Below are positions 31,271-58,938 of a DNA stretch of 64,000 bases, piece by piece. The notes under the pieces were generated by a model. The model worked only from the letters and a program-made list of their open reading frames with translations, did not search any database and was not told the DNA's origin. The stretch is from a virus (Duplodnaviria; Caudoviricetes), in the IMG/VR virus record IMGVR_UViG_3300046517_001709, positions 424 to 64,423 of that record; one strand, 5' to 3'. The translations under genes were made by a program, and so were the position numbers. Positions within the stretch are counted from its first letter, which is position 1. Each line of letters begins with the position of its first letter.

Positions 31271-31570
31271 ATGACGTTCAGCTTCACCGCCGCCGGCACC
31301 AAGGACCAGGTCCGCCAGCAGCTCGCGGCCAGCGAGGCCCAGCACCGCCAGTGGAACAACCACACCCCGCTCCTCGCCAGCGTCTACGAGCTCATCGGCG
31401 CCCACCTGGACCACAGCAACTACGCCGGCGGCCTCATCGTCGAGGCCAGCGGCCACCACGACACCTCCTACGGCCAGTTGAACCTGAGCATCAGGTCGCT
31501 GAACATCCCGGCCGTCCCCGAGGAGCAGACGAAGGACGAACCGGAGCCGGCCGAGGAGCCAGCGACCTGA
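31271..31570 (+). CDS. hypothetical protein
   Basis: AAGGAG RBS; IVEASGH motif. Confidence 0.75.
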   Translation: MTFSFTAAGTKDQVRQQLAASEAQHRQWNNHTPLLASVYELIGAHLDHSNYAGGLIVEASGHHDTSYGQLNLSIRSLNIPAVPEEQTKDEPEPAEEPAT

Positions 31571-31580
31571 CCGCACAGCA

Positions 31581-31623
31581 GAACGCCCCGGACTCGTGGG
31601 AGGTCCGGGGCGTTCGGCGTTTC
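31581..31623 (+). terminator. putative intrinsic terminator
   Basis: GAACGCCCCGGAC/GTCCGGGGCGTTC 13-bp stem followed by GGCGTTTC. Confidence 0.65.
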
Positions 31624-31668
31624 ATGGTGGGGACGGAAGCCGCTGGCTGGCCGCCGTACCCTGGCCCC

Positions 31669-32179
31669 ATGGACATCGCCGAGTTCATCACTACGCGGCT
31701 GACCGATCTCGAACGCCTCGCACACGACGCCGAGGGCAGCGGTGACGGCGCCTGGGAATCCGTCGTCGGCGCCATGGGCCCCGAGGTGCGCGTGGAGGAC
31801 GGAGTCGTCTGGGCGCGCGAGACGCCGTGGGATGTATGGGGTTGCGACGACTACTCCGACGAGGAAGGGTGCGTGGACGCCCGCGCCGGGTGGATGCGGC
31901 AGGCCGAGCACATCGCGGCCCACGATCCCGCTCACGTCCTGGCGGACATCGCCTCCAAGCGGGCGATCGTCGAGGACTACGTCACAACCTGCCGGATCCG
32001 AGATGAGGCCGCCGGGCGCATTCAGGAAGCAAGCACATGCATCCGGCCGGATCGTTCATGCGGACTACGACGAGTGGGGGCGTGCGGACCGGGAGGCGTC
32101 CCTGCTTGATGGCGTTGTCCAGCGCTTGGCGGCACAGTTCGCTGTCCATCCCGAGTACAAGGAGAGCTGGAAGTCGTGA
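31669..32179 (+). pseudogene. DUF6221-family protein, frameshifted
   Basis: N-terminal DIAEFITTRL and HDPAHVLADIASKR in one frame; C-terminal HPEYKESW in the +1 frame; AAGCAAGC at 32027-32034. Confidence 0.7.
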
Positions 32180-32457
32180 CCATCGTTGGTTTCATCAGCG
32201 CCCGCTTGGACGACGACGAGCGGATCGCCAACGAGTCGAAGCGCCCCGACTCGTGGATCCGCAGGCTCTTGCGTGAGATCGCCGCCAAGCGCCGCGTACT
32301 GACGCGGCACAGCGGCCACGGCCTGATATGTGACGGATGCGGCAACGATTACATGAGCAGCGAGTCCCGCTACCTCCTTGAGGAGTGCCCCGAGCTCCGT
32401 GACCTTGCCGCGCCGTTCGCAACGCACCCTGACTATGACGAGAGCTGGAAGCCGTGA
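32176..32457 (+). CDS. DUF6221-family protein
   Basis: FISARLDDDE..EIAAKRR..LAAPFATHPDYDESW. Confidence 0.85.
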   Translation: MTIVGFISARLDDDERIANESKRPDSWIRRLLREIAAKRRVLTRHSGHGLICDGCGNDYMSSESRYLLEECPELRDLAAPFATHPDYDESWKP

Positions 32458-32963
32458 CCGACCTCGCAGCCTTCCTGACCGCGCGCTGGGACGAGCAGGA
32501 AGCCCGGCTGCGCAGGGGCTGGTACAGCGATACCCACTGGAAGGTGTTCGAGACCCGCATCATGCTCGGCACCTGGACGGTATCGCGCCAGCGCGGCATC
32601 AGCGTCGCGCTGAACGACGAGATCGCGCTGGCTGGCCTGAAGCTTCTCCGCGAGCTCCAGGACGAATGGCGGCGGCAGGAAGCCGAACCGCTGCTAGCTG
32701 ACCTCGCCGCCAAGCGGGTGGTCCTGGCCGAAGTCGCATCCTGGCAGCACGCCCTTGTCGACGGCGACACCTGGCTCTCCTGCGCGCAGGCGGTTGACGA
32801 GCACTATGGGGAAGGACGCCCCGGATCGGGTTGCGCCGACGACCGCCGCGCCGGAGGCCCCTGCGACTGCGGCCTCGAACGGCGGCGCGAGGCGATCCTG
32901 CGCCCCATGGCGTCGCCGTTCAGCGCACACCCGGAGTTCAAGGCGGAGTGGGTGACGGCGTGA
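32454..32963 (+). CDS. DUF6221-family protein
   Basis: DLAAFLTAR..DLAAKR..PFSAHPEFKAEW. Confidence 0.85.
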   Translation: MTDLAAFLTARWDEQEARLRRGWYSDTHWKVFETRIMLGTWTVSRQRGISVALNDEIALAGLKLLRELQDEWRRQEAEPLLADLAAKRVVLAEVASWQHALVDGDTWLSCAQAVDEHYGEGRPGSGCADDRRAGGPCDCGLERRREAILRPMASPFSAHPEFKAEWVTA

Positions 32964-33397
32964 CCGACATCGTCGCCTTCCTGACCGCGCGTCTCGACGA
33001 GCAGGCCGCAGCGCTGATTGAGTACGTCGAGAAGCGTCACACCGCGAAGATGTCGGACGCCTTCTCGCATGGGTTCATGGTCACTGACGCCAGCGCACGG
33101 ATGGTCCTGCCGTATCCGACCCCCCTGCGATCGCTGAGCCCCTATGAATACGACGCGGCCATCTGGCTTGACGCGGACATCGCCTCCAAGCGGGGCATCA
33201 TCCAGCAGTGGCAGGAGGCCGACGCCGCCTGCCGGCGCAACGTCGGCGACCAGATGCTGAACGCAGTTCATATGGCGACCCTGCAGGTCGTTCTCGTGTC
33301 GCTCGCCAGCGCGTACCGAGCCCACCCCCGCTATGCCGGAGGCAAGGTGGACGACTGGACGTGGCCCGGGGCGGCCGACGAAGGGAATTTGACATGA
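32960..33397 (+). CDS. DUF6221-family protein
   Basis: DIVAFLTARLDE..DIASKR..LASAYRAHP. Confidence 0.8.
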   Translation: MTDIVAFLTARLDEQAAALIEYVEKRHTAKMSDAFSHGFMVTDASARMVLPYPTPLRSLSPYEYDAAIWLDADIASKRGIIQQWQEADAACRRNVGDQMLNAVHMATLQVVLVSLASAYRAHPRYAGGKVDDWTWPGAADEGNLT

Positions 33398-33579
33398 AGA
33401 TCCTGCGCCGCCTCGCCGGCCACAAGACGACGAGCCGCACTCAGGGACCTGACCGCTACGCCCGCGCGGGCTGCTCCTGCGGCGCGACGTTCAAAGCGCC
33501 TGACGGGCGGTTCCTGCTGGGCGACTTCGACATCTGGGAGAAGACGCACGGCCGCCTCGAACCCACCGAAGGAGCCTGA
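33394..33579 (+). CDS. small Zn-binding protein
   Basis: GH..CSCG..H. Confidence 0.6.
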   Translation: MKILRRLAGHKTTSRTQGPDRYARAGCSCGATFKAPDGRFLLGDFDIWEKTHGRLEPTEGA

Positions 33580-36119: not shown

Positions 36120-36400
36120 AGCGCGGCCGGATGCAGTGCAAGGACATCCCCGACGAGCTCGTCATCCAGGCGGTCGTCAACACCACCGAGAAGGGCCCGG
36201 GGAGCTGGCGGCGCTGGGATGACGTGTGGCCGCAGTTCGAACGGCTGCTGCCCGGCGTCCCCGGCCCCTTGTTCTATGCCAAGGTCGATCGGATGCAGCT
36301 CCGTGCGCAGCCCCGCATCCACGCCTGCGTGCACACGCCCTACCGCAAGGGCCAGTGCCGAGGCGACGTGCATTTGGCCGAGGAGTGCAAAGGGTGCTGA
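36116..36400 (+). CDS. hypothetical protein
   Basis: MQCKDIPD..CRGD motif. Confidence 0.7.
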   Translation: MKRGRMQCKDIPDELVIQAVVNTTEKGPGSWRRWDDVWPQFERLLPGVPGPLFYAKVDRMQLRAQPRIHACVHTPYRKGQCRGDVHLAEECKGC

Positions 36401-36867
36401 CGATCCGACGCGATCTCTACGACGCGATCATGGCGCATGCCCGCGCCGACCACCCGAACGAGGCCTGCGGCATCATCGCCGGACCGGCCCGTTCGGACCG
36501 GCCCGAACGCCTCGTCCCCATGGCCAATGCCGAGCAGTCCCGGACCTTCTACCGCTTCGACGTCGCCGAGCAGCTGGCGGCGTGGCGCGAGATGGACGAG
36601 CGCGGTGAGGACGTGGTGATCGTCTACCACTCCCACACCGCCACGAAGGCCTACCCGTCGCGTACCGACGTCGCGCACGCCAGCGAGCCCGATGTTCACT
36701 ACGTCGTGGTTTCCACCCGGGACGCGGACGGCCTGGGCGACGTCGAGTTCCGCTCGTTCCGCATCGTCGGCGGCGAGGTCACCGAGGAAGAGGTGCGCAT
36801 TGACTCGCCGAACGCGCTCGCTCGTACGGGCAGCCGAGAGGCGTGCGGCGGCTCGGCGGCGGCCTGA
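36394..36867 (+). CDS. JAB/MPN+ (M67) metallopeptidase, Mec-like
   Basis: HARADHPNEACG and YHSH.ATKAYPSRTD (E..HxH..S..D); resembles actinobacterial Mec. Confidence 0.92.
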   Translation: MLTIRRDLYDAIMAHARADHPNEACGIIAGPARSDRPERLVPMANAEQSRTFYRFDVAEQLAAWREMDERGEDVVIVYHSHTATKAYPSRTDVAHASEPDVHYVVVSTRDADGLGDVEFRSFRIVGGEVTEEEVRIDSPNALARTGSREACGGSAAA

Positions 36868-36977: not shown

Positions 36978-37157
36978 ATGACCACGGTCCACGTCGTGCC
37001 CAGCGGCGAACCACCCGAGAACCACACCCTCGGCGACTGTCCGTGCCGGCCGCGCAGGCTTCCCAGGCGCCGCGGGGACGGCAGCGTCATCGACTGGGTC
37101 CACGCCCACCGCGCGGCCGCCGACGAGCTGGACATGCCCCGGATGCTGGCTGCATGA
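36978..37157 (+). CDS. small His/Cys protein
   Basis: HVVP....H....CPCRP...H. Confidence 0.6.
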   Translation: MTTVHVVPSGEPPENHTLGDCPCRPRRLPRRRGDGSVIDWVHAHRAAADELDMPRMLAA

Positions 37158-37750
37158 TCCCTGGCATTACCGTTGCCATCCCGTCGATTCCGCCGCGCGC
37201 GGCGATGCTCGGCCGGGCCCTGGCCTCGGTCACGGACCAGGAGTTGCCCGCCGCCGCGGTGTCGATCGCCCTGGATACCGGCCGGCAGGGCGCCGCGGCC
37301 ACGCGAGACAGGGCGCTGCGGGCCGTACGCACCGAGTACACGGCGTTCCTGGACGACGACGACCAGATGCAGCCTGAACACCTGCGGGTGCTGATGGACG
37401 CTGCCGAGGCGTCCGCCGCCGACTACGTGTTCTCCTACTACACCGTGGCCAACGCCGACGGGCAGCTCATGCCACATGTGGATCCGCTCCGGCACTTCGG
37501 GCGCGTCTTCGATCCGGCCGATCCGCACCAGACGACGATCACGATCCTGGTCCGGACTGAACTCGCGCAGGACCTCGGCTTCCGCGACCCGCCGGAAGGC
37601 GAGCTGATCGCCGGCCAGCGCTACGGCGAGGATTTTGACTTTTCCGTCCGTGCCGCCCAAGCGGGGGCAAAGATACTACACATACCAAAACGGACATGGC
37701 TGTGGTTTCACCATGGCGCGAATTCTTCAGGCCTACCTTCGCGCTGGTAG
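37154..37750 (+). CDS. glycosyltransferase family 2
   Basis: VAIPSI, AFLDDDD, GEDFDF. Confidence 0.9.
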   Translation: MIPGITVAIPSIPPRAAMLGRALASVTDQELPAAAVSIALDTGRQGAAATRDRALRAVRTEYTAFLDDDDQMQPEHLRVLMDAAEASAADYVFSYYTVANADGQLMPHVDPLRHFGRVFDPADPHQTTITILVRTELAQDLGFRDPPEGELIAGQRYGEDFDFSVRAAQAGAKILHIPKRTWLWFHHGANSSGLPSRW

Positions 37751-51842: not shown

Positions 51843-51903
51843 GACGGGCGCGCAGGCTCGGGATCCTGGGCGCCCGTCGTGACCGGCGCTCGGGTGCCGG
51901 TCA
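51843..51903 (-). terminator. hairpins downstream of capsid gene
   Basis: GACGGGCGC/GCGCCCGTC and TGACCGGC/GCCGGTCA stems. Confidence 0.45.
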
Positions 51904-52992
51904 GCTACCGGAGTTGTCCTCCAAGATCGCGACCGATTGCTCGACGCCGAGGGCGAAACCGCGGCGGGCGCGCATCTTGAGGATCGACTCGTCGGTCAGG
52001 GCCGAGAGGCCGTTGCGGCCGTCGATGTACACCGACTCCGGGCCGGAGCGGATGCCCAGCAGCAGGTAGCTCGGGACAGTGAGCATCGCCAGCGGGTTGC
52101 CGGTCGGCTTGGCCGTCGGCGCCGCCGACGTCTTCGCGCCCAGGGACCACTTCACCGGGTAGCCCATGATGTAGTCCGGGACGTTCTGCGCGCCGCCCGC
52201 GGTGCCGTTGGACGACTCGTTGAAGATCGGACGGCCGTTGCCGTCCTTGATGCCGCGCAGCTTCTTCTTGAAGTTCGGGTGGCAGATCCACAGGGCGCTG
52301 GCCTCGTCCCAGTAGTCGCCGGACTCGACGTTGCCGGCCACCGTGGACAGCAGGTCGTAGGTGGTGCCGCCGGTACCGGTCTGGGTGAGGTTGGTGTTGG
52401 CGGTGTAGCCGGTGTTCGAGTCGGTCTGCGTCAGCGCGTAGTACACCGAGTCGAAGGCGCAGCCCGAAGTGGCCTTCGCGGCGGTGACGGCCAGACAGGC
52501 GTTGTCCAGGCCCTTGGCGTAGGCGGTGCCCCAGTCCGTCATCTTCGTGGCGAGGATGTCGGCCAGGGAGTCGTCGATGTCCTCCTCGGCGACGCGGATG
52601 GCCTTGCCGAACTTCTGGACCGCCAGCACGACCTCGTCGTTGACGGTGACGTCCTCGCCGTAGGTACCGCCCTTGGCGATGATGTCGACGCCGACGCCGC
52701 CGGACCGCGGCGTGGACCGGGTCTGGGTCTTCATCGGGATCCGCTGGGCGAAGGACTCGACCGCGGAGATCTGCATGACCTTCTGGATGACGTCGGACCC
52801 GAACTCCTCCGGGATCCAGTGGTCGAAGTTGTCGCGGGCGCCACCGGCCGCCAGGAGGATCGGCGAGCCGTCGCGGCGGAAGCCGATGACGTCGCCCGGG
52901 TCGTGGTCCGGGACGCGGGGATCGAACAGGGTGCGGTTGCGGAGAGGGGACACGCCGGGTGCCTTGTCTGTGATGGGTGGGCTGGGTGTCAC
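51901..52992 (-). CDS. major capsid protein (HK97 fold)
   Basis: WIPEE, LRGIKDGNGRPIF, IMGYPV; position after scaffold. Confidence 0.92.
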   Translation of the reverse strand: MTPSPPITDKAPGVSPLRNRTLFDPRVPDHDPGDVIGFRRDGSPILLAAGGARDNFDHWIPEEFGSDVIQKVMQISAVESFAQRIPMKTQTRSTPRSGGVGVDIIAKGGTYGEDVTVNDEVVLAVQKFGKAIRVAEEDIDDSLADILATKMTDWGTAYAKGLDNACLAVTAAKATSGCAFDSVYYALTQTDSNTGYTANTNLTQTGTGGTTYDLLSTVAGNVESGDYWDEASALWICHPNFKKKLRGIKDGNGRPIFNESSNGTAGGAQNVPDYIMGYPVKWSLGAKTSAAPTAKPTGNPLAMLTVPSYLLLGIRSGPESVYIDGRNGLSALTDESILKMRARRGFALGVEQSVAILEDNSGS

Positions 52993-53135
52993 CTGCGCCC
53001 CATCACGGGCACGCGGGCCGATGAACTAGACCGGTCACCGGTTTCGTGCATCCGCGGCGCCTCACGCGCATCGCGGACTTTGATCGGAAGATACGCCGCG
53101 CGGCTGGCGTTAGTCAGTCCGCGCGGCGTCCGGGC

Positions 53136-53879
53136 TCAGCTTCGATTGCCCAGGGCCGCGGCAGCATGCTGCTCCGCGGCGGACTTCGGCTTCGGCTGCT
53201 CGTTCTTACGCCCGGCGGCGTCGATCCGTGGGGCGCGGACCTTCTGCACGGGCGGCTCCGGCTCGGGCTTGGCGAACAGCGCCGGGATCGCGTCCTTGAT
53301 CTGGTCGATCTGATCCTCCAGGCCGGACACGCCGTCCTCGTCGACGTCCACGTCCGCCATGTCGATCATCTTCAGGAGCTTCTTCAGGGTGGCTGTGCCG
53401 GTGTCCGGGCTCAGGCCCGCAGCGAACAGCGCGGCTCTGGCAGCCTCGTTGACGACCATCGGCTTGAAGCGGCTCTCGGCGGCGGCGACCGCGTCCTCGA
53501 CGGCCTTCGCTGCGGCCTCGTCGCCTGCGGCCGACGGCGCGGTGCCCTTCTGCGCGGCCCGCAGCTGGGCGGTGAGGTCGCGGACCTTCCCGCGGGCCTC
53601 CTTGGCCGCCGTGCGCTCCTTCTCCAGCGCACCCAGGGCCCGGTCCAGATCGGCCTGGGTGACGACCTTCGCCGCGGGCTTCGGCTTCTCCTCTTCGAGG
53701 TCATCCGGCTCCTCGTCGTCCTCGTCGGCAGCGCGCCCAGCGGGGACGCCGTCGCCTTCGAGGTCGATGCCGGTGTCGCCGTCGTCATCATCCGACGCCC
53801 CGCCGGCGAACAGGTGGATGGGGCTTCCGTCGTTGCGGTGGCCGATGACCGTCCACGGCCTGGTGGTCCCGAGCGCCAT
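53136..53879 (-). CDS. capsid scaffolding protein
   Basis: Acidic N-terminus; coiled coil ALEKER; P.LF near the C-terminus; precedes capsid. Confidence 0.8.
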   Translation of the reverse strand: MALGTTRPWTVIGHRNDGSPIHLFAGGASDDDDGDTGIDLEGDGVPAGRAADEDDEEPDDLEEEKPKPAAKVVTQADLDRALGALEKERTAAKEARGKVRDLTAQLRAAQKGTAPSAAGDEAAAKAVEDAVAAAESRFKPMVVNEAARAALFAAGLSPDTGTATLKKLLKMIDMADVDVDEDGVSGLEDQIDQIKDAIPALFAKPEPEPPVQKVRAPRIDAAGRKNEQPKPKSAAEQHAAAALGNRS

Positions 53880-53907: not shown

Positions 53908-54981
53908 TCAGGGCTTGGTCTTGGCCGCGGGCCTGCTGTAGTGCGGCACAGTGCGGGTGGGGAACCGTCCGGCGGTCACGGCGCGGCGGCTGTAGGCCTT
54001 CACCGATGCGGGCGCAGCCGGGTTGCGGGCCAGCGCCTTGCGGGCGGCGCGGATCCGTTCGGCGCCGGATTCGGACGGCAGCGACCAGCCCTTGAGGATC
54101 GAGCGCTGCGCTTCGCGCTGGAGCGCCTCGGGCAGCGACGGGCCGGTCGCGCCCGGTGCGACGCCCAGCCACACCACGCACTCACACCGGCACGAAGGAT
54201 GAGCCGGCGGATGTTCGACAGGACCCGCGGGCCACAGGTGCGGCTTGTCGGTGAAGATGGAGGCAAACGCGATGTCGAATGGCTGTCCGGCCGCTGCGAT
54301 GCGCCCGGCGAACCCTTGGCAGGTGACGCACGCATCCGGCTCGGCCAGCCAAAGCATGTCGGCGCCCAGTGCTTCGGCGACGGCGGCGCGGCCCGCGTTC
54401 GCACCGCCCTGGATCGCGGTAGTGGTGTCGCGCTCGGCGGCGGCGGTGGCCCGCCGGGCTTTGCCCAGAGCGGCATCGACGTCGGCGAAACTGCCCGTTC
54501 CAGCCTGCCCTAGGGCGTTCTCGGCGCTGCCGAGCTGGTCCCGCACGGCTTGTTCGAGACCCGCGGCAATGCGGGCCGTCGCATCGTCAACAACAGGCGC
54601 GACATCGTCAACTGTCAGAGCGGCGCCGGTCGCGCGGATGGCCTGGCCGGCGCCGAGGTTCAGGGCGCGGTCGGTGTAGCCGCCGAGCGCGATGGCCGAG
54701 GAGGTGTCGATGCGGGCGAGGCGCCCGCGCAGGTCCGTGACGATCGCCGCAGCGCGGATCGGGTCACCGGGCGCGGTTGTACTGCCGAAGGTGCCGATCC
54801 AGGCCTTCACGGCGGCACGCTGCACGGCCACCAGCTGCAGGCGCAGCGGCCAGGTGACGGCTTTGACGGCGGCGCGTTCGAGGATCAGGAGCTCGGCGGC
54901 ACGCAGCGCCTGCTGTGCCAGAGCGGCCTGTATCGCTGCGGACTGCGGCGCCGGTGCGGTATCAGCGGTCTGTACGGTCAT
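53908..54981 (-). CDS. MuF-like minor head protein
   Basis: W.AEPDAC..C..PPAHPSCRC. Confidence 0.8.
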   Translation of the reverse strand: MTVQTADTAPAPQSAAIQAALAQQALRAAELLILERAAVKAVTWPLRLQLVAVQRAAVKAWIGTFGSTTAPGDPIRAAAIVTDLRGRLARIDTSSAIALGGYTDRALNLGAGQAIRATGAALTVDDVAPVVDDATARIAAGLEQAVRDQLGSAENALGQAGTGSFADVDAALGKARRATAAAERDTTTAIQGGANAGRAAVAEALGADMLWLAEPDACVTCQGFAGRIAAAGQPFDIAFASIFTDKPHLWPAGPVEHPPAHPSCRCECVVWLGVAPGATGPSLPEALQREAQRSILKGWSLPSESGAERIRAARKALARNPAAPASVKAYSRRAVTAGRFPTRTVPHYSRPAAKTKP

Positions 54982-56707
54982 TGGCGCCGCCCTCGGCGGC
55001 CGGGGCGCCCGGCGGCTGCGCCCAGTACGGGCCGTCCTGAGGCGTCGGCATTCCGGCTGGAAGCGCGGCCTGAGGCGGAATCGTCGGCAGCGGCGCAGGC
55101 TCCGGCGGCAACGCGGGCGGTCCCATGATGTCGCCGAGCAGCGCAACGATGAGGCGCTGAATCTGCTGGTCGTCAATGACTCCGGCGGCAACGGCAGGCG
55201 CGAGAGAGCCAAGGGCGGTTCCGATCTTCACGAGGATGCCGGTGCCGAGCTGGAGGTCATCGCCGTCACCGAACCACTCGTCGACCTGGTCCTGGGTGTA
55301 GCCGGCCTCCATGAACGCCTGCTTGTCGGGCAGCCCGGCGTTGAGTTTGGCCAGCAGTGTCTCCCAGCCGGCCTGGTCGTCGATGGCGCCGGCGGACTTC
55401 CAGCGGACGGTGACCTCGGCGTCATCGATGTCCAGCACCTTCAGCGCGAATACGACCATCTCGCACCAGGTGTCGCCGTAGGACTCCTGCCGGTCCTCGA
55501 TCTTCTTCGTGAACGGCTCGTTCGCGGCCCGCCGGGACTCCCCGGATTCCACCGCGCCGGTCGGGTCCAGCCTCGACAGCGGCGTGTCCGTGATCAGCGC
55601 GCCGAAGCGCAGGTACAGCGTCATCGGGTCGGTGAACGTCGCGGGGTCGGCCGGGTCGAACTGGCCGACGCCCTTCACGCCCTGAAGCCACCACACCGAC
55701 CCGGGGTCGGCGGACAGCTGCGACTGCGGGTCGCCGACGCGGGAGGTGGCCCCGGTGTCCAGGGCGTACTGGAACAGGTCCTCGTCCCCGGCGGCGAGCT
55801 CGGAGGAGTCGGCGGTGCCATCGGCAAGGGCGTAGCGCTGCGGGAAAGCCTGGTAGTCCACGCCGGCCATGTGGGACAGGACCAGCTTGCGCAGCGAGTC
55901 CTGGGTGCCGTAGAAGCCCTCGTGCTCGGGGCAGCCGTAGGGGTCGTCGTTGCGGAAGTGGAAGACGGGGATCTCGCCGAACGGGTTCGGGCGCGGCCAG
56001 CCGGGGCCCGCGTCGACATCCTGCGGATCGACGTCGTCGGCGGTGTCGTAGAACGGCACCATGTCCTCGGCTTTGGGGTGCAGCACCCCGGCCTTGGAAA
56101 CGTACTTCTCGATCCGGTCCGGGTAGTACAGGTCGACGCGGACCTTCTTCTGCGCGGCCAGCACCCACTGCTTGATGGCGAACGCCTTCACCTGCGGGTT
56201 CTCGGCGTCGTAGAAGAGCCGCACCGACATCGGGCTGTTGTAGAACACATCGACGTTCTTGATGCCGACGCCGTCCCAGTCGGTGTCCGCCGAGGGCCAC
56301 ACGATCACGTAGGCGTCGCCGTACTCGCTGGCCCTGCGCATGATCTGCTTGGACTGGCGGGCCAGCTTGTTGTCCTTCCACAGGTCGTCGATCAGGGCTT
56401 TCGCGCCGGGCGTGGTGGAGTCGACGGAGGCGATCTCCAGGCGTTCGGCGACGGCCTGCACGGCCTTCTTCGCGAAGTTGAACTTGAACGCCGTCCCGGT
56501 CCTGGCCATGGCGCGACGCAGCCGGACCGTCGCGAACACCTCGGCGCGGGTGCCGTCGTAGTACTCCTCGGCGGCCTGATACGCGCCCATGGCCTGCGCA
56601 AGCTCGCCCATGGCCAGCTCCAGGTCGGAGCCGGGCGCCTGCGACGGAGGCGGGGCGGCGCCGTCGCCGTAGGAGATGGAGGCGACGGACGCGTTCGAGG
56701 TGGCCAC
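54962..56707 (-). CDS. portal protein (SPP1-like)
   Basis: YYDG, NF....V, NPFGEIPVFHF.N, FPQRY, SGES. Confidence 0.9.
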   Translation of the reverse strand: MATSNASVASISYGDGAAPPPSQAPGSDLELAMGELAQAMGAYQAAEEYYDGTRAEVFATVRLRRAMARTGTAFKFNFAKKAVQAVAERLEIASVDSTTPGAKALIDDLWKDNKLARQSKQIMRRASEYGDAYVIVWPSADTDWDGVGIKNVDVFYNSPMSVRLFYDAENPQVKAFAIKQWVLAAQKKVRVDLYYPDRIEKYVSKAGVLHPKAEDMVPFYDTADDVDPQDVDAGPGWPRPNPFGEIPVFHFRNDDPYGCPEHEGFYGTQDSLRKLVLSHMAGVDYQAFPQRYALADGTADSSELAAGDEDLFQYALDTGATSRVGDPQSQLSADPGSVWWLQGVKGVGQFDPADPATFTDPMTLYLRFGALITDTPLSRLDPTGAVESGESRRAANEPFTKKIEDRQESYGDTWCEMVVFALKVLDIDDAEVTVRWKSAGAIDDQAGWETLLAKLNAGLPDKQAFMEAGYTQDQVDEWFGDGDDLQLGTGILVKIGTALGSLAPAVAAGVIDDQQIQRLIVALLGDIMGPPALPPEPAPLPTIPPQAALPAGMPTPQDGPYWAQPPGAPAAEGGANDRTDR

Positions 56708-56764: not shown

Positions 56765-58387
56765 TCAGAAGGTGTCGTCGTCGTCCTCGTGGCCGTAGAG
56801 CGGGTCGACCGTCGCGCCGCCGGAGCGCTTCTTCCTCTTCAGGAACACATCCACGCCGGTGCCGATGGCATCGACGAGGTCGTCGTTGGTGCCCTTGGGG
56901 AACGCAACGAGCTGCTCCAAGGCGGCAGGGAGCAGCGTCTCGTGCACGACCTGCGGCAGCATCGACAGGCCGGCCGGGACGGCTGGGTCCTGGCCCGACT
57001 TCAGCCGGACCGGCCGCTGCTGGTAGTAACCGAGCAGCCGTGCGGCCCGAACTTCCTTCGCCTCGGACTGGGAGACGGTCTTGATCGGTACGGGCAGGTT
57101 CGTCAGGACGCTGCCCTTCCAGACATCGCCACCCTGGTTCACCTCGACGACGACGCCGCGGATGGTCGGGAACTCGGTGAGGATCTCCATCACCTTCTTG
57201 CGCAGCGGCTCTCCGGGCGCGACCTTGACGGCGACGGCGTAGCGGACGACGCAGCGCCGGTAGGCCGCGGAATAGCCGATGACGGCCAGGGCGGTGTAGT
57301 CCGACTTCTTCTTGGAGGTGACGGCCGGATCGATGGATAGCAGCTCGTGTGTAAGCGCGGGCAGCTCGGCGCGAACGATGTCGTCGGCGTTCCAGTAGTC
57401 GCCGTCGCGCCCCATCGGGTCGTTGTCGTAGTTGAGCTTGTACGAGCGGGTGTGCTCAATCGCCTTCAGGAACTGAAGCGGCCACTTCGACGGCCACATA
57501 CTGCGGCGATCGCCGGTCTCCTCGTCGGTGACGATCGCCCGGTAGTAGTGGACGCGGATCTGCTCGTCGCCGACCCACGCCGCGGGCTCCTCGCCGGGCC
57601 TGGTAACGGTCTTCACGAGGTCGTGGATGATCGAGCCGGGCATGGTGACGGTGCCGGCGATGACGACGCGGGCGCGGATGTTCAGCGGGAGGATCGCGTT
57701 GGTGACCGTGGCGAGGCGCTTGTCCTTCTGGAAGTCGGAGTAGTTGCTCTCGTCGGGTTCGATGTCGTCCAGGATCAGCAGGTCGGGGCGCCGCTTGCCG
57801 ACCTTCATGCCGAGGGTCTTGGCGTCCACGCCCTTGGCGCCGAACACGAACCCGGACTTGGTCACCAACAGAGCCTTGGTGTCCGATTCGTTGGCACCGG
57901 ACGGCCGGCGGCCTGCGATACACAGGTCGGGGAAGTCGGTACGCAACACCTCGTTGCCGTCCAGCTCCCGCTTGAACGTCAGCAGGTGTAGCTCGGCCTG
58001 TGTGCCGGAGTCGGCGAACGCGGCGATGAACTTCTTGTGCCCGTGCGCTGCTGCCCACAGCGGCAGGATCAAGAACAACCAGGTGGTCTTGCCGGATTCG
58101 CGGGGGCAGACGTAGGCATCGCGATCGGCGCGGGGGCGCCGAGTTGGGAGCGCCCACCTCTTGGCGGCCGCGGCCAGCTCGACGTGGAACTCGGACAGGG
58201 TGATCTGCGCGTCCTCGAAGTCGTCCTTGAGGTGGTGCGGCAGATACAGCAGCGCAAACAGCAGCGGGTCGAACTTGGTGAGCTGCCGGCGGCACTCGGA
58301 CACCGCCAGCGACGCCGGGTCGAGATCGGCCAGGTACGCGTCGAGGTCGAACGCGGCTTGCGTGGGCTCAGCGGTGGCTGTGCTCAC
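56765..58387 (-). CDS. terL: terminase large subunit
   Basis: PRESGKTT Walker A; LLILDD Walker B; IDPA..SDYT and FPKG..DDLVDA nuclease domain. Confidence 0.95.
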   Translation of the reverse strand: MSTATAEPTQAAFDLDAYLADLDPASLAVSECRRQLTKFDPLLFALLYLPHHLKDDFEDAQITLSEFHVELAAAAKRWALPTRRPRADRDAYVCPRESGKTTWLFLILPLWAAAHGHKKFIAAFADSGTQAELHLLTFKRELDGNEVLRTDFPDLCIAGRRPSGANESDTKALLVTKSGFVFGAKGVDAKTLGMKVGKRRPDLLILDDIEPDESNYSDFQKDKRLATVTNAILPLNIRARVVIAGTVTMPGSIIHDLVKTVTRPGEEPAAWVGDEQIRVHYYRAIVTDEETGDRRSMWPSKWPLQFLKAIEHTRSYKLNYDNDPMGRDGDYWNADDIVRAELPALTHELLSIDPAVTSKKKSDYTALAVIGYSAAYRRCVVRYAVAVKVAPGEPLRKKVMEILTEFPTIRGVVVEVNQGGDVWKGSVLTNLPVPIKTVSQSEAKEVRAARLLGYYQQRPVRLKSGQDPAVPAGLSMLPQVVHETLLPAALEQLVAFPKGTNDDLVDAIGTGVDVFLKRKKRSGGATVDPLYGHEDDDDTF

Positions 58388-58938
58388 CCATCGGCCTGCG
58401 CCTTCAGTTCCTCCTCGGCCGCGGCGGCCTTCGCCTTTGCCGCGTTGACCATGTCGATGAGTTCGAGGTCCTGCTGCGTGGTCTCGGTGACGGTGGCGTC
58501 GACCTTCATCGCGGCGTCCAGGCCGAGCAGGCGGGCGCGCCGTTCCTGGATCTTCAGGAGTCTGTCGATCGCGGCGAGCGCGGGTCCGGAGTCCTGAAGC
58601 GGGATCTTCTCGCCGTGTTCGTCGGTCCGGTGGACGACGCGGCCGTCGGAGATGACGTAGTGCTCGCGCTCGAGGATGGCCAGGACGAGCAGTTGCATGC
58701 GGTCCAGGCGCTCGATCTCCAGCTCGCGGACTTTCGCGCGCAGCGGGTCGAGGGTTTCGGTGATCTCGCAGTCGATGCGGCGCCAGACGGTCGTGAGGGA
58801 CAGGCCTGTGGCGGCGGCGATGGCGCGCAGGGGCATTCCGCGCAGCCGCATCTCATAGCAGGTGCGCTGCTCCTCGGCGAAGTGCGCGTTGGTGTAGCGA
58901 GGTGGCGCCCATGTCTGGATCTGGGTCATGCGTTCCAC
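58384..58938 (-). CDS. terS: terminase small subunit
   Basis: N-terminal HTH; LE..RLD and ERRARLLGLDA; upstream of terL. Confidence 0.8.
   Translation of the reverse strand: MERMTQIQTWAPPRYTNAHFAEEQRTCYEMRLRGMPLRAIAAATGLSLTTVWRRIDCEITETLDPLRAKVRELEIERLDRMQLLVLAILEREHYVISDGRVVHRTDEHGEKIPLQDSGPALAAIDRLLKIQERRARLLGLDAAMKVDATVTETTQQDLELIDMVNAAKAKAAAAEEELKAQADG

Follow-up and report, generated by a model that had tools for sequence, protein, structure and literature searches.

The shared leader of the capsid protein and the scaffold

The genes considered here lie in a 64,000-nucleotide stretch of a tailed-phage genome (IMG/VR record IMGVR_UViG_3300046517_001709, positions 424 to 64,423), referred to below as the window. 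The record is 64.4 kb long, about 75% complete and 70% G+C; the window covers nearly all of it, and its closest named relatives are Streptomyces phages. On the minus strand the window encodes, in this order, a terminase, a portal protein, a MuF-like protein, a scaffold and a capsid protein. The scaffold and the capsid protein begin with a common leader that ends in Gly-Gly, and a Mec-like JAMM (Prok-JAB) zinc metalloprotease encoded on the plus strand is a candidate for the peptidase that would remove it.

The capsid protein has the HK97 fold (PF05065, E 5.9e-17; TIGR01554, E 4.5e-21) and its longest open reading frame (ORF) spans 51901..52992. Translation probably starts at the GTG at 52953 (V14), because relatives and a 350-residue database call start likewise, which would give a leader of 38 residues (V14-G51, core DVIGFRRDGSPILLAAGG, 52840..52953) with a predicted cut after G51 (52842-52840). 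The mature capsid protein (51901..52839) is predicted to begin with ARDNFDHWIPEE, the boundary being taken from leaderless homologues. The scaffold gene (53136..53879; PF06810, E 9.9e-11) encodes a leader (M1-G27, core TVIGHRNDGSPIHLFAGG, 53799..53879), with a predicted cut after G27, and the PF06810 body (53136..53798), which opens with the acidic run ASDDDD, the point at which leaderless scaffolds of relatives begin. With the predicted cut written as an arrow, the N-terminus of the scaffold is MALGTTRPWTVIGHRNDGSPIHLFAGG↓ASDDDD and that of the capsid protein is ...DVIGFRRDGSPILLAAGG↓ARDNFDHWIPEE. The corresponding stretches are V35-A52 of the capsid protein (VIGFRRDGSPILLAAGG↓A, 52890-52837) and V11-A28 of the scaffold (VIGHRNDGSPIHLFAGG↓A, 53849-53796); the first-pass annotation of this DNA, made from the letters alone, had placed and read both copies correctly.

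The similarity of the two proteins was confined to this leader. BLASTP of the capsid protein against the scaffold aligned 12 identical residues of 18 (E 0.003, a single comparison), and every segment outside the leader had an E of at least 17, which bears out the earlier statement that the proteins are otherwise unrelated. A profile of 54 leaders from other loci, from which both window copies were excluded, gave the window capsid protein 32.6 bits, the scaffold 33.1 bits and the runner-up in the six-frame translation of the window 9.0 bits. Recognition also worked across the two proteins: a profile of 19 capsid leaders found the window scaffold (18.9 bits) and one of 35 scaffold leaders found the window capsid protein (17.2 bits). 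Collection of distinct versions, 21 from capsid proteins and 53 from scaffolds, gave the consensus T-[IVL]-[IL]-G-[YHF]-R-x-D-G-R-P-[IV]-[YH]-x-[IVL]-A-G-[GA]. Several capsid leaders end in AVAGG.

Three further genes of the module lie on the minus strand. The large terminase (56765..58387) was named by homology, being 64-78% identical to the portal-upstream gene of relatives, whose equivalent is already annotated as terminase in phages Zuko and Rooney. It is followed by an SPP1-type portal protein (54962..56707; PF05133, E 2e-11) and a MuF-like minor head protein with an HPSCRC motif (53908..54981; phrog_24918 'head morphogenesis', E 4.8e-9), in which no Pfam match at 0.01 and no protease domain was found. 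The gene upstream of the terminase (58384-58938; phrog_645 'Rnase E', E 2.5e-18) probably encodes the small terminase, because it is kept beside the large subunit in relatives.

Cutting by a conventional prohead protease, of the S78/HK97 or ClpP/S49 type, or by a C39 double-glycine peptidase, which the first-pass annotation had named as its alternative, is very improbable. The record is incomplete and such a gene could be missing from it, and GG↓X is the classical leader site of C39 peptidases. Against this, PF04586 (S78), PF00574 (ClpP) and PF03412 (C39) had no match at E ≤ 1 in the window record and four relatives, two of them complete with terminal repeats, in agreement with the earlier remark that no HK97- or ClpP-type protease is recognisable; moreover, the run of portal, MuF-like, scaffold and capsid genes leaves no space for a further gene.

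Distribution and boundary of the leader

The distribution of the leader was examined in 98 loci, which comprised the best 80 of 136 capsid relatives from a scan of viral contigs and 18 loci from a genome scan (Streptomyces, Kitasatospora and one contig of a Pseudonocardiaceae metagenome-assembled genome that resembles a phage genome). With a profile score of at least 14 bits as the call, the capsid leader was present in 32 loci, absent in 64 and not assessable in 2, and the scaffold leader was present in 76, absent in 17 and not assessable in 5. Both leaders were called in 28 loci, the scaffold leader alone in 48 and neither in 15. The capsid leader was called without a scaffold leader in 2 loci and with an unassessable scaffold in 2; one locus combined a leaderless capsid with an unassessable scaffold, and in 2 neither protein could be assessed. 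The only cases of a capsid leader without a scaffold leader were thus two threshold misses: L027, in which the scaffold was not found, and L031, which has a weaker copy on its scaffold. Calls by script and by eye were close (31 and 33 leader-bearing capsids among the 80 viral loci). Thus the leader is present on most PF06810 scaffolds and on only a sub-clade of capsid proteins. Of the three named phages checked for leaders here, Rooney carries them, and the capsids of Zuko and OscarSo are leaderless.

The leader behaved as a discrete module with a sharp boundary. Leaderless capsid proteins begin M- or V-ARNT(Y/L/M)EAWIPEE, precisely at the GG↓ARD position of the leader-bearing forms, and in scaffolds without the leader the first residues are those of the acidic run found after GG↓A in the others. 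The idea of a unit bounded by Gly-Gly, put forward from the window alone, therefore holds in the homologues.

A 40-column leader profile was compared with 5.8 billion proteins and 8000 candidates were scored. The 64 hits consisted of 59 PF06810 scaffolds, 2 capsid proteins and 3 proteins without a Pfam family, and the named sources were Streptomyces, Kitasatospora and Embleya. When the leader profile was run on five host genomes, all Streptomycetaceae (Streptomyces or Kitasatospora), no housekeeping protein was found to carry the leader. The matches were prophage scaffold-like proteins only: five scored 40-53 bits, a sixth 22.6 bits, and of two checked at 16.5 bits one was of this kind. All remaining hits scored 17.9 bits or less. 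The leader therefore does not copy a host N-terminus in these genomes, unlike that of phage 80alpha, which copies the Prp-cleaved N-terminus of L27.

Two Streptomyces prophage scaffold-like proteins carry variant leaders, ...GYRRDGRAIYPILGA↓SSEDE in L125 (1414-2172) and ...GPQPIWPILGG↓APEGEGE in L127 (minus strand near 1500), and the motif therefore reaches past the sampled capsid family. A prophage scaffold used as a tblastn query had no match among the named phages. A degenerate relative of the leader may also be present in Microbacterium phage OscarSo, whose scaffold (L003, 6983-7690) has the N-terminus ...PRMPLYAMSFAKSASGGGG↓SDDEDDD.

This distribution bears on the possibility that the motif is a retained signal for assembly or interaction (scaffold-capsid co-folding, portal/MuF nucleation or chaperone docking), with Gly-Gly a mere flexible linker. 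The conserved part of the leader reaches 18-24 residues upstream of Gly-Gly (50-55 bits), far beyond what the tail site of a JAMM enzyme needs; 61 of the 64 database matches are scaffold or capsid proteins; the endings vary between GG and GA; and the scaffold leader of 80alpha is required for assembly when its cleavage is not (PMC5744158). However, close homologues of both proteins omit the motif and start exactly at the boundary, as would be expected of a removable propeptide. Together with the positions of JAB genes and the model of the complex described below, this leads us to consider a retained signal unlikely.

The phage JAB and its host counterpart

The candidate leader peptidase (36394..36867, plus strand) is a protein of 157 residues that matched PF14464 with an E of 7.3e-31 and 106.8 bits, against a cut-off of 25. 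Its GTG start overlaps the end of the upstream ORF by 7 nucleotides. The JAMM motif E...HxH-x7-S-x2-D is intact, and 11 phage JABs all have E23, H79, H81, S89 and D92. The protein is 60-65% identical to Mec of the five hosts, so the first-pass assignment of this gene as Mec-like was sound, and judged by sequence the phage JAB is a captured host Mec. Its closest structures were uncharacterised bacterial JAMMs and Pyrococcus JAMM1 (5lda, E 1.3e-13), and the closest NCBIfam family was the desampylase NF041370 (E 4.9e-24, below the cut-off of that family). There was also a weak match to phrog_5556 'tail protein', under which the head-module JABs of mycobacteriophages are filed as well.

As sole query, the window JAB found no relatives in the genomes or viral contigs, and the JAB of a related contig, L035, found only itself; further JAB loci were gathered with a closer, 9-row JAB alignment. 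None of 13 phage records contained a ThiS/CysO-like gene; the phage enzyme is therefore without a phage-encoded ubiquitin-like partner. Nor does the window JAB lie in a mec-cysO-cysM context, its neighbours being ORFs of no known function and a glycosyltransferase gene that follows it (37100-37750; phrog_14775, E 1.2e-47).

A profile of the phage JABs matched exactly one gene in each of the five host genomes (179-186 bits). In all five, this gene, mec, opens a mec-cysO-cysM operon. Host CysO belongs to the ThiS family, resembles SAMP1 and ends ...DGD(S/N)VTILPAVAGG, followed by MR, GV, AR or MA. The CysO tail that the first-pass annotation gave, DGDSVTILPAVAGG, is thus encoded in four of the five genomes, with DGDNV... 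in the fifth and two extra residues in each. Because the precursor extends two residues past Gly-Gly, CysO needs C-terminal trimming, and mec is the adjacent gene (L115-L119); the task of host Mec is presumed to include a peptide-bond cut after AVAGG.

The suggestion that the leaders resemble the C-terminus of CysO held for the last five or six residues and for nothing beyond them. We rejected the notion that the leader is a CysO fragment or a beta-grasp ubiquitin-like protein; it has 27-38 residues, too few for that fold, and CysO has 92-95.

Genomic context of phage JAB genes

A part for JAB in head maturation was proposed from the window alone; in relatives, JAB genes lie inside head modules. 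The JAB gene is located between the scaffold and capsid genes in at least five related phage lineages. It is the sole gene of that interval in L035, with its start 2 nucleotides past the scaffold stop. In L041, L042 and L043 a gene for a 176-residue protein comes first and overlaps JAB by ATGA. The multi-gene inserts of L015 and L143 end with JAB, and L018 has JAB 1 kb upstream of its capsid gene. In four more loci (L012, L145, L149 and L157) JAB directly precedes the terminase/head operon and is on the same strand. The window and about eight other loci have no head gene within 6 kb of JAB. This placement in head modules is a further argument against a retained signal.

Head-module JABs recurred in mycobacteriophages. 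A relaxed tblastn search with the L035 JAB matched 161 phage records, of which 38 were mycobacteriophages. The head regions of Benzema, a PLot-like phage (L140, 5884-9785), and Send513 (L141, 5986-11971) share the order terminase, portal, small ORFs, JAB, MuF/minor capsid protein, PF06810 scaffold and capsid protein. In both, scaffold and capsid protein have similar leaders: ...FLAWLAATGLTLSGH↓DDD and ...FLEIIAAVGLSGH↓DNQGGY (GLSGH↓D) in Benzema, and ...WPIPPFGG↓ETDDD and ...LTRLPFGG↓EDTAGGY in Send513. Benzema gp11 is labelled 'capsid maturation protease' in GenBank; elsewhere these JABs are labelled 'metalloprotease', 'tail protein' or 'hypothetical'. The mycobacteriophage groups appear to be an independent recurrence of a head-module JAB together with leaders common to capsid and scaffold.

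Several neighbouring genes are recorded here as observations in their own right. The 176-residue protein coupled translationally to JAB (L043, 8929-9459; also L041 and L042) has no Pfam match, and its match in PHROGs is phrog_1128 ('enoyl-CoA hydratase-like'); inspection by eye suggests a His...Cys pattern recalling that of permuted papain-like enzymes. It was considered as a second protease and set aside, being restricted to that lineage and lacking a Pfam match. In L015 (5443-9172) six genes, including those for Tad3 and a DUF6221 protein, are inserted between the scaffold gene and JAB/capsid, and the interval looks like an anti-defence/accessory island, a gene hotspot within the head operon. 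A series of small paralogous plus-strand ORFs in the window (31351-33400) with similar HP(D/E)(Y/F)xxxWK tails may likewise be related to DUF6221. In L044 (4021-7621), a complete phage without JAB, two large proteins encoded immediately upstream of MuF carry ADP-ribosyltransferase exoenzyme domains (PF03496) at their C-termini and resemble MuF-associated polymorphic toxin cargo. The MuF-like protein of L035 (6614-8524, 636 residues) shows a weak match, below the cut-off, to the intein-splicing family PF14890 (E 7.5e-6) and may be an intein-interrupted head protein.

Model of the JAB-leader complex

The structure prediction that the first-pass annotation had suggested as a check was run on three components: the window JAB, with an alignment of 11 rows; zinc; and capsid residues 14-75, with an alignment of 19 rows. 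The interface score, ipSAE, was 0.85 (0.85, 0.79 and 0.87 in the individual runs), and the best of three controls reached 0.01. In calibration, 58 of 80 solved complexes attained the mark set for this score, as did 2 of 110 mismatched pairs. At least 69% of contacts were common to the runs, and partner pLDDT was at least 56.

The capsid residues in contact were I45-N55 (ILLAAGG↓ARDN) and D29-R40, the upstream conserved motif; those of JAB were 23, 25, 79, 81-84 and 89-92, around the zinc site, and 50-68. H79 and D92 are the JAB residues that contact G50, and the G50-G51↓A52 segment is placed at the JAMM zinc site. The model supports binding of the leader by JAB. It also tells against a retained signal, since in it the enzyme contacts the GG↓A bond as well as the conserved stretch before it.

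Proposed removal of the leader

We infer that a Mec-type JAMM, encoded by the host or the phage, removes the leaders in a scheme like that of Prp and 80alpha with a new enzyme class; on balance this is the explanation we favour, with modest confidence. The scaffold, and here also the capsid protein, would be made with a leader of 27-38 residues. Its hairpin-like conserved core and hydrophobic-Ala-Gly-Gly tail would be recognised by the Mec-type JAMM, which would hydrolyse the bond that follows the final Gly-Gly, or in some leaders Gly-Ala, and so release the mature proteins. Host Mec would be enough for prophages and many lytic phages. Some lytic phages would bear a captured copy, preferably under late or head-operon control, presumably securing late supply. 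As for the original proposal that a deubiquitinase-type enzyme cuts both leaders after Gly-Gly, gene context and the complex model speak for it and the Gly-Ala endings against it; the cut itself, and its agent, are predictions.

A number of observations weigh against removal by Mec-type enzymes. Gly-Ala replaces Gly-Gly in 17 of 53 distinct scaffold leaders and 1 of 21 capsid leaders, which is odd for a GG-specific enzyme, and by eye there was no link between GA endings and the presence of a phage JAB. Over 6 residues of the CysO tail a position-specific scoring matrix of the leader scored 7.4 bits, which ranks about 20th among some 74,000 non-scaffold positions, and it detected nothing in CysO over 8, 11 or 18 positions. 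The position of JAB is variable, as for an accessory gene; in the window it is on the opposite strand, 16 kb from the head genes, and in L015 it stands beside the Thoeris inhibitor Tad3 (PF25185, E 9.5e-30) and other accessory genes. No JAB was detected at E ≤ 10 in the leader-bearing phages G008 (100% complete, with direct terminal repeats), G009 (97%), G001 (90%) and Rooney (cultured), nor in any leader-bearing prophage. The non-structural region of G001 is rearranged relative to the window in ORF-level blastp, so that loss of JAB and truncation look alike there. A PF14464 match was present in 9 of the 14 records whose capsid has the leader and in none of the 16 whose capsid lacks it, the co-occurrence that the first-pass annotation had proposed to look for; we dropped this contrast as evidence, because most of the leaderless-capsid records bear scaffold leaders and the contrast follows clade. 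The score of the complex may owe something to memory of solved JAMM-ubiquitin-tail complexes, and the run used custom alignments and a zinc ion, unlike the calibration. Finally, cleavage itself is not essential in 80alpha (PMC5744158).

The phage copy of JAB is thus apparently dispensable, neither universal nor needed in cis, and of the two enzymes that the first-pass annotation allowed for, phage JAB or host Mec, the former is lacking in G008, Rooney and the prophages, which bear leaders without it. Among named Streptomyces phages only Dryad had a JAB match, labelled 'metalloprotease'.

Several of these points would also fit a different account, in which the leader is used or removed by some other host factor and JAB is an unrelated accessory gene, either an auxiliary metabolic gene for cysteine synthesis via CysO or a counter-defence isopeptidase against immunity that conjugates ubiquitin-like proteins. 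Complete leader-bearing phages and all prophages lack JAB, and JAB keeps company with anti-defence genes in L015 and is distant from head genes in the window. Phage JABs are no nearer to each other (26-66% identity) than to host Mec (34-65%), as repeated capture predicts, and virome papers routinely list phage 'mec' as an auxiliary gene of cysteine synthesis (PMC11097641). In contrast, no cysO or ThiS-family companion occurs in the 13 phage records. JAB is what the scaffold-capsid intervals of five lineages have in common, and in L035 that interval contains no other gene; in two mycobacteriophage groups JAB keeps a fixed position between portal and MuF. The complex model sets the GG↓A of the leader at the zinc site, and S78, ClpP and C39 peptidases were without a match in the five records. 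We regard this account as improbable.

Extension of Mec-type removal to a broad set of actinophages with PF06810 scaffolds is put forward tentatively. Mec-type JAMMs might be the missing head-leader peptidases of Streptomyces phages and prophages, through host Mec or captured copies, and of mycobacteriophages, through the fixed head-module JAB. Leader processing in SPP1/80alpha-like head modules without a prohead protease is known only for Firmicutes, where Prp is the enzyme. If the proposal is true, JAMM would be a new protease class in phage morphogenesis and a third route beside phage serine proteases and host Prp, and ubiquitin-like tail recognition would be linked to virus assembly in bacteria. 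An enzyme of sulfur metabolism, Mec, would then be a host factor for assembly of Streptomyces phages, a dependency that can be tested. JABs labelled 'metalloprotease', 'tail protein' or 'mec' auxiliary metabolic gene would gain a function, some of these labels being misread. In searches of the open literature, nothing tied JAB, JAMM or MPN proteins to capsid maturation except a gene list (PMC10893344) and the GenBank label of Benzema gp11.

Comparison with known systems

The closest parallel is staphylococcal phage 80alpha, in which host Prp removes a leader common to capsid protein and scaffold, as the first-pass annotation stated; 80alpha needs the scaffold leader and can do without that of the capsid protein (PMC5744158). 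This primacy of the scaffold leader is mirrored by the scaffold-first distribution found here. Both systems have the head order portal, MuF-like protein (gp44 in 80alpha), scaffold and capsid protein, no phage prohead protease, a PF06810 scaffold and a short leader on an otherwise unrelated capsid and scaffold, and in both a host housekeeping protease is the proposed or known agent. They differ in that Prp is a cysteine protease, whereas the candidate here is a JAMM zinc metalloprotease that would cut after Gly-Gly. In addition, no host protein has the leader, only its last five or so residues resembling the C-terminal tail of CysO, and some of the phages carry their own copy of the enzyme. 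Prp is not known from actinobacteria.

The Mec/CysO/CysM pathway offers the nearest enzyme. The window JAB, at 60-65% identity to Streptomycetaceae Mec, has the full JAMM motif, and the end of the host substrate, AVAGG followed by two residues, is also the end of several leaders. Unlike that pathway, the phage has neither cysO nor cysM, the enzyme would act on an N-terminal propeptide of 27-38 residues with no beta-grasp ubiquitin-like fold, and the useful product would be the C-terminal fragment. The archaeal desampylase JAMM1 (HvJAMM1; PfJAMM1-SAMP2, PDB 5LDA) is the best named NCBIfam match and PDB relative of the window JAB, but the substrates of JAMM1 are SAMP conjugates, and the enzyme is not connected with virus assembly. 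Lambda K (MPN/JAB plus NlpC/P60) is likewise a JAB of a phage structural module, and PHROGs groups it with these proteins as 'tail protein'. However, K is a tail-tip assembly protein fused to NlpC/P60, whereas the JABs described here are standalone, Mec-like and located in head modules; the 'tail protein' label on them is probably a misnomer carried over from lambda K.

Among eukaryotic viruses, the core proteins of adenovirus, African swine fever virus and poxviruses are matured at GG↓X or AG↓X by deubiquitinase-like cysteine proteases. The proposed scheme would resemble theirs in that virion precursors are cut after Gly-Gly by an enzyme class related to deubiquitinases; their enzymes are clan CE cysteine proteases, whereas that of the tailed phage would be a metalloprotease. 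Compared with the processing of 80alpha leaders by a host protease, the scheme would be new in its enzyme class and in the kind of mimicry on which it depends.

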